Positions 9,231 to 63,999 are shown, counted from the first letter of the stretch. The stretch: 64,000 bases of DNA from Eledone cirrhosa (GCA_964016885.1 OZ024742.1:300328001-300392000), one strand, 5' to 3'. Numbers and translations are program-made. Notes: generated by a model from the sequence alone, not told the origin.

Positions 9231-9296
9231 TATTTTGTCTGATGAAGGCATAGCATATTGTTAATATGATATCCCCGAAATATATATAATGAAATA
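9231..9296 (+). ncRNA. Minimal type-I hammerhead ribozyme in the PLE 3' end
   Basis: TATTTTGT-CTGATGA-A-[GGCATAGCATATT GTT AATATGATATCCC]-C-GAAA-TATATA-TA^ATGAAATA. Stem I 8 bp (2 G-U), stem II 11/13 pairs, palindromic stem III. Confidence 0.75.
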
Positions 9297-10189
9297 AATA
9301 TGGTTTTATAAATATAGTTTTCCATTTATTTAATATTGTGTATATATATATATATATATATATATATATATATATATATATATGTATATAATCTCTCTAA
9401 TACTTAGACATCTCAATGAAAATATAAGATATATTAATAAATTATCAACTCAGAGAAGCAATTAAACATATTAAACTTAAGTTTAATACGTTTATATGTG
9501 TGTCTAGGAAGGCGTGTAACGAAAATTACAGGCAGTTTGCCAGTCAGAGGACTCAACGCAGTTCCACAGGTCCGTCAAGTGTAGAGTTAATACCTCCGTG
9601 TATCTAAGGGCTAAAGGCAGCTGTGACCTCCTTCTTCTTCGTCGTAGGTCGTAGGGGCAATCCTCAAACACCCCTTCTAGCGGGTCATGTCAGAAGCAAC
9701 TGTCTCCTACTGATCCGACTGGATCACCAAGCGAGACCAGCCAAGCTCATGCATGTTATGCAACCACCTTGCTTGGAGTCTACCCCTGGGTCTTCTGCTG
9801 GTTGGTTTTGTCTGTAAAATCTGTCCAGCAATTCTTTCTTGAGACATTCTAATCACATGCCTAAAGTGTCGGAGCTGTGATCTCTCAATTTGGAGAAGTA
9901 GCAGCTCTACCTGGTGTGACTATCTGATCTATGAGCTACGCACTCTATCAAAAACCCTTCGGAGGAACCCCATTTCGGCCGCTTGATTAATTTAATATTC
10001 CTATAAAACATCATCGAAGGGCAACATTCAACCAATTCAAAGTATTTTCATGAGATATGGTATATCTTTTCGACATTTCGTCATCATCTCGTATTTCAAA
10101 CTAAATCCATGTAAATTAAGGTCTATGGAAAGATTTAGATATCGTTTGTTTTAATTTGAAATGCGAGGTAATAATGAAAACCTTTATTC

Positions 10190-10525
10190 AAAAGCAAAAA
10201 AAAACAGACCTTATTATGTAAGAAAAAAAAAAGGGGGGGGGGGCACAAGAAAAGAAAAAAATAGGGAAAATTGGAAAAAGAAAAAGGGAGGGGATGGCAA
10301 GAGCTCTGGTGTCGCAGAAGAGAGGGGGAGGGCGATTGGGCCTAGGGCAAGGAGCAGGAGTGCTGCGCCCTGCGGACAAGACGACAACAGTATTACCCGG
10401 ACGATGGCCAGTGACACCCGCTGCAACAGCCACCCAACCTCACGGGGCTCCCTCTTCAGACGGGCCGTCGACGCTCCGATCTTGCGAAGGAGCTCGGCAG
10501 TACGGGGTTCAAGTACGCCTGAGGA
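10190..10525 (-). mobile_element. 3' fragment of a CRE-type (restriction-like endonuclease) LINE
   Basis: Minus strand reads GVLEPRTAELLRKIGASTARLKREPREVGWLLQRVSLAIVR, the C-terminal RE..WL.QR.S.A..RGN motif, followed by a 3' UTR shared with 34800, 35600 and 58300. Confidence 0.7.
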
Positions 10526-11015
10526 TGAAATAACGCTGTCTTTTCTAAAGACATTTATAATGTAAAGTGAGTTTAATTCAACTACAATTCAAAACCACAG
10601 TGTGTTCAGTACACCCCATTCGAATTCAGTGGGACTTTTTTTCTCCAAAAAGTGGTACAGACGTCTGAATTCAAGTCAAAACAAACAATAGGCGCAAGTG
10701 TAAAGAAGTAGTTATTTTATCAACCCTGGAAGGACGAAAGGTAAGTTATAAATTTACCGGACGATAGACAAAGTTGACCGCGGTGTGATTTGAACACAGA
10801 ACGTAAATATTAATTTACATTATAACCTTGTGTAATCCCGAAGCATTTTATGTTAATTAAATAAACTGAATTTTATGTAAATAAAATAAACAACAGGTTA
10901 TACATATATAAATGGAGCCTCAAGTCAAAATAGTTTCTATATTATGTTATGTATTAAGAGAAGAAATAATAAGGTGTGGAGAGAGAGAAAAACCAAACAA
11001 AATTTTACACAGAAA

Positions 11016-11112
11016 ATGTTTACGTCACAGAAAAATGAGAAAATAGTCGAATTTTCACTGTCTGATTTGAATTCGGATGTTCTTGACGATTTCCCACTAA
11101 GCTTTAACGAAG
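11016..11112 (+). CDS. ACTR8: ACTR8 putative exon 1
   Basis: ATG at 11016, MFTSQKNEKIVEF...FNE, donor GAAG|GTAGGT, phase 1 fits exon 2. No recognisable homology. Confidence 0.6.
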
Positions 11113-62500: not shown

Positions 62501-62625
62501 CACACACACACACACACACACACACACACACACACACACACACACACACACACACACACACACACACACACACACACACACACACACACACACACACGCA
62601 CACACACACACACACACACACACAC
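62501..62625. repeat. (CA)n microsatellite
   Basis: Directly visible. Confidence 0.98.
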
Positions 62626-62845
62626 TTACGCACGTGCTCAAGTATAGCTCTTTTTACAAAACGGTTTTCTTTCCATTTCAGGCAGACGCGCTCCAACATC
62701 CACTTTTCTAAAAAACAAATCATACACAAAACACCAGCAGTTTTGCAAGAGATGTCAACATGAATGGACCTTTTATTTTTATCTAAAGACAATTTTTCCT
62801 ATTCCATCCAGCCCGCCCCCTCAATCTATTTTATTTCTCATTCTT

Positions 62846-62881
62846 TCTTCTGATGAAGAACTAGCGTCCGAAACGTTAAGA
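62846..62881 (+). ncRNA. Minimal hammerhead ribozyme motif (imperfect stem II)
   Basis: TCTT-CTGATGA-AGAACTAGCGTCC-GAAA-CG-TT^AAGA, about 100 nt upstream of a (TA)n tract. Confidence 0.6.
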
Positions 62882-63956
62882 CCCTCTTCCCGCTATATCA
62901 AGCGTTAACCTAATATATACCTTCCATATACTGTACCGATTGTGTTGTTATTTCTGTTTACCTTTTACATACATACACACATTATATATATATATATGAA
63001 GATCACTGATGAAGGACTAACTTTATTCATATATAACCCATTTGCAACCACGCAGCACGTTTATTCTCATATTTACACATATATTTCCCCCCGCTGTGAC
63101 CCGTCTATTTCGTTCTTACTGCTTCCTCTTTCTCTGTATCTTTACCCCCTCTAACAGTCACTCTCTCTGTTAGCCTCTTCCTCACCCTTCACTCACTCAC
63201 TCTCTAATACTACCTCTCCTACTTCTTCCCGTTTGACCTGTGCGTAATTCTTTTCTCTCGCACGCTTGGCCAGGCCGGTTCCCCTTTTTTCTCTCTCTCG
63301 TCTACGAATTCACAGAACTTATGTTCACCGAATCCACGGACTGGAGTCCTTCTTCCTCCCGTTTGACCTGTGCGGAATTCCTTCCTTGCTCACATTTCAA
63401 CCAGGTTTGATGGTCTTTATTCTCTCTCGTTCACGATTTCACCGAACTTATATTCATGGAAATTTGGGACTTGACTCGTTCTTCCTCACTTTTCGTTGCT
63501 TTACCATCTTTGTTTGTTTACACTCTCGCTGTTCCCTTTATTTACGTGTCCCAACGACTTTCTTTAGCCGTTGTTCGCACCAACCGGAGGTATATGGTCT
63601 TTAAAGCGATGGAATACCGATGATGGTTGGAAGATCACTGATGAAGGACTAACTTTATTTATATATATATATATATATATAAATGGAATAGAATGAAATG
63701 AAATTTCATTTATCACTCTTAGTACGGCACTTACTTAAATGTAAGTATCTATACGTACATGCATATATGTATACAGACGTACATTAGTATGTATATATAT
63801 ATACATACATGCACACATATATATATGCACGTATCGGTTTACCCAACATTTATTATCATGCTCGGTTTGTTTATTTGTAAACAAACAAACAGCCCGAGTT
63901 ACGCCGTACAGTGTTTAGGCAACCACGTCGCCTTTTTGTTCAACACTGACACAGGA

Positions 63957-63999
63957 ACGCTGTACTAGTTTCAAGCTTATTAGCTATCGTCAGCATCGT
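63957..63999 (-). ncRNA. Minimal type-I hammerhead ribozyme
   Basis: ACGATG-CTGACGA-T-AGCT AATA AGCT-T-GAAA-CTAG-TA^CAGCGT. Stem I 5/6 bp, stem II 4 bp, palindromic stem III. Confidence 0.8.

Follow-up and report, generated by a model that had tools for sequence, protein, structure and literature searches.

Hammerhead folds of seven repeat families in a 64-kb stretch of the Eledone cirrhosa genome and their probable origin in Penelope-like elements

A stretch of 64,000 nucleotides from Eledone cirrhosa (GCA_964016885.1 OZ024742.1:300328001-300392000), referred to here as the window, carries a series of minimal hammerhead ribozyme folds in the company of (TA)n runs and fold-backs, and raises the question of which elements these folds belong to and how they came to lie there. 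An earlier note, made from the sequence alone, had listed eight such folds, several with U-U or A-C at the base of stem II, and had proposed a mostly non-coding system of ribozyme-tagged retroelements with a single Penelope-like element in the window as the type of autonomous driver. The analysis presented here leads with considerable assurance to another answer, namely that the folds lie near the 3' ends of five coding Penelope-like families, within one likely retrozyme and in one family for which no partner was found, and that their copies probably arose by target-primed reverse transcription into (TA)n.

A descriptor comprising the core, stem II, GAAA, stem III, UH and stem I, with G-U pairs permitted, finds nine folds in the window, with C3 at 9239(+), 38722(-), 38803(+), 52774(-), 56194(-), 57001(-), 57944(+), 62850(+) and 63993(-). 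Core positions are numbered as in the hammerhead papers cited below; seven of the folds have the core CUGANGA and all nine match CNGANGA. The eight folds of the earlier note are all recovered, and the ninth (52730-52780, C3 at 52774, minus strand) was absent from its list. Together they fall into seven repeat families of the 3.0-Gb genome, termed F1 to F7, and their positions are as follows.

6411 to 9340, plus strand: F1, a 5'-truncated, putatively Hydra-clade Penelope-like element between (TA)n runs; the open reading frame remnant (C-terminal half of the reverse transcriptase plus GIY-YIG) ends at 7657.
9231 to 9296, plus strand: F1 hammerhead with CUGAUGA, a long stem II, an A-C base (or an extra A followed by G-C) and stem III TATATA.
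38569 to 38990, both strands: F2 fold-back of two inverted 3' ends of a putative Neptune-like element; the right arm has a tail extension (end approximate).
38689 to 38727, minus strand: F2 hammerhead of the left arm, with a U-U base, a 3-bp stem II and stem III GTAC.
38798 to 38836, plus strand: F2 hammerhead of the right arm, from the descriptor scan, identical to the left.
52730 to 52780, minus strand: F7 hammerhead with a U-U base and, in most family copies, a 4-bp stem III; it lies inside a fold-back at 52705-52854.
56132 to 56318, both strands: F3 fold-back (putative Hydra clade), terminating with a tail at (TA)n.
56161 to 56198, minus strand: F3 hammerhead with a U-U base, a 2-bp stem II and stem III CAATTG.
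56936 to 58099, both strands: F4 inverted insertion (putative Hydra clade) made up of a short minus copy, a piece of host exon and a longer, tailed plus copy, with (TA)n on both sides.
56956 to 57006, minus strand: F4 hammerhead-like fold with a CAGAAGA core (U4 to A), a U-U base and a 5-bp stem III.
57939 to 57989, plus strand: second copy of the F4 hammerhead-like fold, from the descriptor scan and the pattern count.
62106 to 62970, plus strand: F5, a 5'-truncated, putative Neptune-like element (endonuclease end plus 3' untranslated region), ends approximate.
62846 to 62881, plus strand: F5 hammerhead with an extra A followed by G10.1-C11.1 and stem III CG, a classic minimal Penelope hammerhead.
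63679 to 64000, minus strand: F6, part of a retrozyme-like repeat unit of 420-430 bp that runs on beyond the window.
63957 to 64000, minus strand: F6 hammerhead with a U-U base, a 6-nt loop II, stem III CTAG and an extended stem I with an internal loop.

The CUGANGA core, GAAA, UH and stems I to III that define a type I hammerhead are present in F1, F2, F3, F5, F6 and F7. Copies were counted genome-wide by sequence patterns of varying looseness, with a reversed-pattern control of zero for F2 to F7, so that each count is a minimum and comparison between families is rough: 20,745 matches for F4 (57001/57944), the most abundant family, 14,025 for F6 (63993), 5,901 exact matches for F2 (38722/38803), 4,258 for F5 (62850), 3,068 for F3 (56194) and 1,379 for F7 (52774). 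F1 (9239) has 43 matches with the window copy included, 42 of them 100% identical (40 of 675 candidates scored). Short copies predominate in every family.

Evidence for the origin of the folds comes from what lies upstream of them. Five of the families (F1 to F5) run into reverse transcriptase (RT) or endonuclease coding of their own and none was seen for F6 or F7, so that the link from each family to an RT-encoding element, called for earlier, can be drawn for five of the seven. RT and, C-terminal to it, a GIY-YIG endonuclease share one frame in F1 (741 amino acids) and F4 (713 amino acids), and both frames carry RWR, DKT, YRDD, CxCX5C, CxxC and CxH, with no cysteine pair (CCHH) inside GIY-YIG; RWR is a conservative variant of RWK, which with DKT, CxCX5C, CxxC, CxH and the lack of CCHH marks the Hydra clade (Craig et al., 2021, PMC8557442). 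The F1 frame of the window is 99% identical over 415 amino acids to the open 741-amino-acid frame at locus L168, and open 713-amino-acid frames are frequent among 105 scored matches of F4. Coding sequence of F3 occurs only in pieces of up to 388 amino acids, with the C-terminal Hydra motifs, and DKT in a separate piece. From these motifs and by-eye comparison with the Hydra-1_Obim protein, F1, F3 and F4 appear to be Hydra-clade Penelope-like elements. A 439-amino-acid frame of the window found no Pfam match at E up to 0.1.

For F2, locus L106 holds two inverted full copies, each with an upstream frame of about 450 amino acids and an open RT-endonuclease frame of 775 amino acids containing GLKF, DKG, YLDD, CX4CxxC and CxxC inside GIY-YIG, and the window fold-back is 97% identical to this locus. 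The two copies, one residue apart, make up an 8.4-kb palindromic insertion (L106:700-9050), which is very recent. The F5 copy in the window matches locus L175 at 89% over 914 nt, and copies of that family include fragments with the CX4CxxC linker and CCHH. F2 and F5 are accordingly placed, on motifs rather than on a tree that separates Neptune from Nematis, as probable Neptune-like elements. The earlier identification of the folds as hammerheads of Penelope-like pseudo-long terminal repeats is thus borne out, and the tandem arrangement itself is seen in hammerheads on both the 5' and the 3' side of the coding frame, at L169 for F1 and, with the 5' copy present in 7 of 20, for F4. An origin of the U-U or CAGAAGA folds in Naiad elements was considered and rejected, the endonuclease being C-terminal here whereas Naiad is defined by an N-terminal GIY-YIG.

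Parallels with published Hydra-clade elements, Hydra-1_Obim included, extend to the single frame of RT and C-terminal GIY-YIG of about 710-740 amino acids in F1 and F4, the hammerhead near the 3' end, the use of (TA)n, tandem and inverted copies, and tails (PMC8557442). The hammerheads of F1, F3 and F4 are unlike those tabulated for the clade, the short motifs of F2, F3 and F4 were not found in that supplement, and F1 (2.9 kb though truncated) and F4 (about 3.2 kb), with their long 3' untranslated regions, stand at or above the clade norm of <3 kb. F2 shares DKG, GxKF, the CX2-5CxxC linker and CCHH with the Neptune clade, and F5 the linker and CCHH; F2 differs in its separate frame of about 450 amino acids upstream and in its U-U base, which was found documented for the Hydra clade and a retrozyme, with no statement on Neptune found. 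A literature search on octopus hammerhead ribozymes listed only Craig et al. (2021) as relevant.

The association with (TA)n noted earlier holds in a wider sample of 60 evenly spaced 10-kb pieces from the three largest contigs (600 kb), in which a slightly wider descriptor finds 46 folds. Thirty-three of these (29 of 40 without F6) have (TA)6 within 200 nt on the 3' side of the cleavage site and 15 of 46 on the 5' side; for points chosen at random the figure is 15%. By family, (TA)6 lies within 200 nt at 14-23 of 19-30 loci, and (TA)n adjacency is seen at 15 of 19 loci for F1, 23 of 25 for F3 and 20 of 25 for F4; the longer run was taken as the criterion because (TA)4 occurs within F1, F2 and F6 themselves. 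Each coding family has fixed 3' ends, short or tailed, joined to TA. A preference for (TA)n is reported in 26 of 27 Hydra-clade families, along with tandem copies, and inverted 5'-truncated copies and tails are described as general for these elements (PMC8557442); such tails have been tied to two internal RT start sites (PMC11167929). By analogy with what has been published for these clades, the GIY-YIG endonuclease would nick (TA)n and RT would start at one of two sites just 3' of the hammerhead, giving a short or a tailed end. Synthesis would usually halt early, leaving most copies with little beyond the hammerhead, and the new strand would often snap back on itself to produce a fold-back.

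The link to fold-backs likewise stands, inverted copies being found in most families: an inverted upstream copy lies within 1.5 kb at 6 of 19 loci for F1, 13 of 30 for F2, 19 of 25 for F3, 11 of 20 for F6 and 10 of 20 for F7, counts in which both members of one pair can be included. At 14 of 15 F4 loci fetched the fold-back turns exactly on the palindrome TTCAGAA, which suggests snap-back priming at short palindromes. The F4 insertion of the window lies in an intron between calmodulin-like EF-hand exons at 56480-56821(-) and 58639-59055(-) (Pfam EF-hand_7, E 1e-13 for the first), and at the junction of its inverted pair a 99-nt piece (57039-57137) is 97% identical to exon sequence some 370 nt distant (56578-56676), which points to a probable switch of template, while the element was inserting, to host sequence nearby. 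The arms of a fold-back place the two hammerheads on opposite strands, and fold-backs are therefore not cis dimers but by-products of integration. The palindromic stem III inserts themselves are as the earlier note gave them at five loci (TATATA, GTAC, CAATTG, CG and CTAG), and are present in 19 of the 46 sampled folds. They appear suited to dimers, with a favourable predicted self-duplex (-1.7 to -6.4 kcal/mol) and an unfavourable monomer hairpin (+2.4 to +6.0 kcal/mol), and cleavage in the families concerned (F1, F2, F3, F5 and F6) would proceed mostly through dimers within tandem transcripts, with release of a circular monomer in F6.

U-U at the base of stem II is the true register in F2, F3, F4, F6 and F7, in which alternative registers are unpaired or fold worse, and with the ninth fold the four loci first reported become five families at seven loci. 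Among the 46 sampled folds the first and last bases of the stem II domain are U-U in 23, G-C in 10, A-U in 8, G-U in 3, A-C in 1 and U-G in 1. Of the two loci read as A-C, the one at 62850 was read in the wrong register: A-GG stands there in 95 of 100 listed copies of F5, an extra A followed by G10.1-C11.1 with a stem of 4 bp, and the window copy departs from its family by a point change. This is the published form with an extra base between positions 9 and 10.1, then G-C (Cervera and de la Pena, 2014, PMC4209133), which F5 resembles also in its palindromic stem III. At 9239 the bases in 29 distinct relatives are A-U in 18, G-U in 7, G-C in 2, C-U in 1 and A-C in 1 (F1 itself); since these relatives pair directly there, A-C is probably the true 10.1-11.1 position in a young family, an extra-A register being the possible alternative. 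Covariation is visible among the relatives of this fold. The stem differences described before as covariation-like lie between families, and hence are not covariation within one.

The U-U base, called unusual before, is already in print. U10.1-U11.1 has been described as natural and as the best-tolerated mismatch, together with a 2-bp stem II (Perreault et al., 2011, PMC3088659); the axolotl HHR_Amex2 has it, and its monomer was 22% cleaved in one hour and its dimer more (PMC7229834). The same form ('ctgatgat ... tgaa') stands in 14 of 26 Hydra-clade rows of supplement S2 of PMC8557442, and a matching row from Hydra magnipapillata in the supplement of PMC4209133. Metagenome loci beside Hydra-like proteins have a sense-strand fold in 57 of 77 cases, some of which may belong to neighbouring elements, and 58 distinct motifs among them include 22 with U-U and 20 with G-C. 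U-U at 10.1-11.1 is probably a tolerated variant across the clade.

The one unexplained residue is the core change in F4. Position 4 is A in 100 of 100 listed copies, in place of the U4 of type I hammerheads. A looser pattern gives 41,600 matches against 1,888 in the control. The number of F4 3' ends is 20,745 or more, possibly near 40,000. Among 20 copies chosen for the length of their frame, the fold lies 3' of the frame in 19 and 5' of it in 7, always with CAGAAGA and in none with a CUGA version; 16 of these copies have a mean identity of 97.6%. Of 100 listed copies from sister subfamilies that have a longer loop II, 89 carry A; the pattern that found them itself selected for the core and stem II. 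An older subfamily, too, has CAGAAGA as its fixed core. Of 30 loci picked by their 3' flank alone, 16 keep the position, read by eye as 15 A and one T at a junction. Non-A matches number 948, and the 15 loci fetched gave 14 T, all at fold-back junctions, and one C. An ancestral CUGAAGA subfamily was rejected, as the 14 T of these 15 loci and the 4 T among 30 loci of the sister subfamilies all fall at junctions.

From the residue changed, it is likely that U4A leaves F4 with poor cleavage or none, and that the family transposes all the same. One account, offered tentatively, is that catalysis was lost through U4A before the subfamilies split, and that the hammerhead was maintained for its structure, as a signal to the protein that the element itself encodes, cleavage being optional. 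Catalytic hammerhead mutants were without effect on insertion in vitro of one Penelope-like element (PMC11167929), and when one type III hammerhead was mutated pairwise, each single mutant in the CUGA region had low activity (PMC9901934). Somewhat less probable is that CAGAAGA is an active natural core variant whose cleavage as a monomer is aided by the 5-bp stem III. That stem is predicted to be stable as a monomer (-1.9 kcal/mol); subfamilies with 75-87% identity to the main one have retained the core, the U-U base and the stems but differ in loops II and III; and a viroid variant with U4C is functional in vivo (PMC3088659). Against an active F4 stand the two mutant studies just cited, the selection for core and stem II in the subfamily pattern, and the lack of the A4 core among the 58 metagenome motifs and the 26 published Hydra rows, all 26 of which have U4. 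F4 shares U10.1-U11.1 with the natural variants of PMC3088659, where a 2-bp stem II also occurs; that paper mentions U4C, and 'U4A' has no occurrence in its main text, figures aside. No report of a U4A hammerhead was found in the literature covered, the text (without figures) of mainly non-subscription papers. The retention of the stems could reflect selection on structure or simple inheritance, which the data do not separate.

F6 is of another kind. It consists of tandem non-coding units with a period of 420-430 bp (422 bp for one unit), 38% GC and 71% pairing in a circular fold. Every unit has a type I hammerhead, an arrangement that marks a non-LTR (long terminal repeat) retrozyme, and F6 is likely a retrozyme repeat. 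The part in the window is 85% identical to array L125, with its continuation seen at L107; 7 of 20 loci come from one array, several other arrays occur among the matches listed, and no coding partner was seen at the loci examined. Non-LTR retrozymes, of which axolotl HHR_Amex2 is one with U-U at the base of stem II, are likewise tandem non-coding units (150-450 bp, GC <45%) with type I hammerheads (PMC7229834); F6 is unlike them in its inverted pairs and in a TA-rich stretch inside the unit (L125:1000-1900), at which some copies end at genomic (TA)n. This stretch may help F6 to use TA-targeting enzymes. No RNA record was listed for F6, and in three of four runs, those guessed to be RNA, coverage fell on the TA-rich stretch only; neither result is evidence for or against expression. 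Animal retrozymes have been derived from Penelope-like elements (10.64898/2026.07.22.740005). A second tandem hammerhead repeat, with a spacing of 467 bp, a G-C base and stem III CTAG, came up in the random sample (L259:8939-9406, L211:1014), as did several families with a long stem II.

Could the remaining families, too, be non-coding passengers mobilised in trans by elements like that at 6411-9340? The non-coding, tandem F6, the partnerless F7 and the majority of short copies in each family would fit such a scheme, whereas F2, F3, F4 and F5 each continue upstream into their own enzymes, F2 and F5 are Neptune-like rather than Hydra, and F4 has many open frames. For five of the seven families, from two clades, trans-mobilisation is already refuted and as a general account it is improbable; with it falls the earlier picture of a mostly non-coding system with one type of driver, and most loci of the window are truncated ends of families that encode enzymes of their own.

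That the folds match by chance in low-complexity DNA, to which an AT-rich, repeat-rich window and a descriptor permitting G-U pairs might lend themselves, is refuted and of negligible probability. In a shuffle check of the kind proposed in the earlier note, the window has nine matches where 200 dinucleotide shuffles per setting (whole window and 500-nt blocks) have means of 0.015-0.09 (maximum 1-2), and the 600 kb has 46 where 20 shuffles yield 0-5 (mean 1.5); the families, moreover, run to thousands of copies. The window has about twice the fold density of the sample, and folds of the same kind. An Rfam scan of the window gave no hammerhead among the best 150 of 246 matches (E up to 10), these being solely microRNA-type matches to hairpins and TA repeats.

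Several results weigh against the origin and mode of spread proposed here for the seven families. The cut-out minimal motifs at 9239, 56194, 57944 and 62850 are predicted to have their lowest energy in folds other than the hammerhead. Next to F6 the TA run is internal to the unit and so uninformative on targeting. An inverted copy within 1.5 kb was found at 0 of 25 loci for F5 and 3 of 25 for F4, and the same-strand neighbour within 1.5 kb that cis dimers need at 0-1 loci per family outside F6. F7 showed no coding partner upstream of 40 motif occurrences examined, and the clade calls rest on motifs and the by-eye comparison rather than a tree with published references.

Other features of the window may be recorded. 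A further fold-back between (TA)n runs at 61750-61940, also present at loci L030 and L105, is probably the 3' end of another Penelope-like family, cut short either within the ribozyme or beyond it. At about 62995-63660 lies a unit of about 630 bp whose flanking direct repeats start with half a hammerhead core, the 5' one (CUGAUGA, then GGAC), without a matching GAAA half, possibly an additional non-autonomous family. At 47236-47419 an inverted repeat of 184 bp, almost perfect and lacking a hammerhead, resembles a foldback or miniature inverted-repeat transposable element. A broken non-LTR retrotransposon with APE endonuclease, RT and a PHD finger occupies 18124-21097(+), and there are minisatellite arrays at 22037-22775 (period 93), 50316-50678 (96) and 53434-54325 (33).

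Hammerheads in Penelope-like elements, their (TA)n targeting, inverted truncated copies and the U-U base are already published, and the families described here are additions to known classes. With 46 folds in 600 kb, half of them U-U, descriptors that require a paired base of stem II would overlook such elements. The role of Penelope hammerheads has been called unclear (PMC8557442), and in F4, a highly amplified family with a fixed core change, the question can be tested with one RNA and one base swap. If its catalysis has indeed been lost, F4 would be a natural, genome-scale test of what Penelope hammerheads are for.

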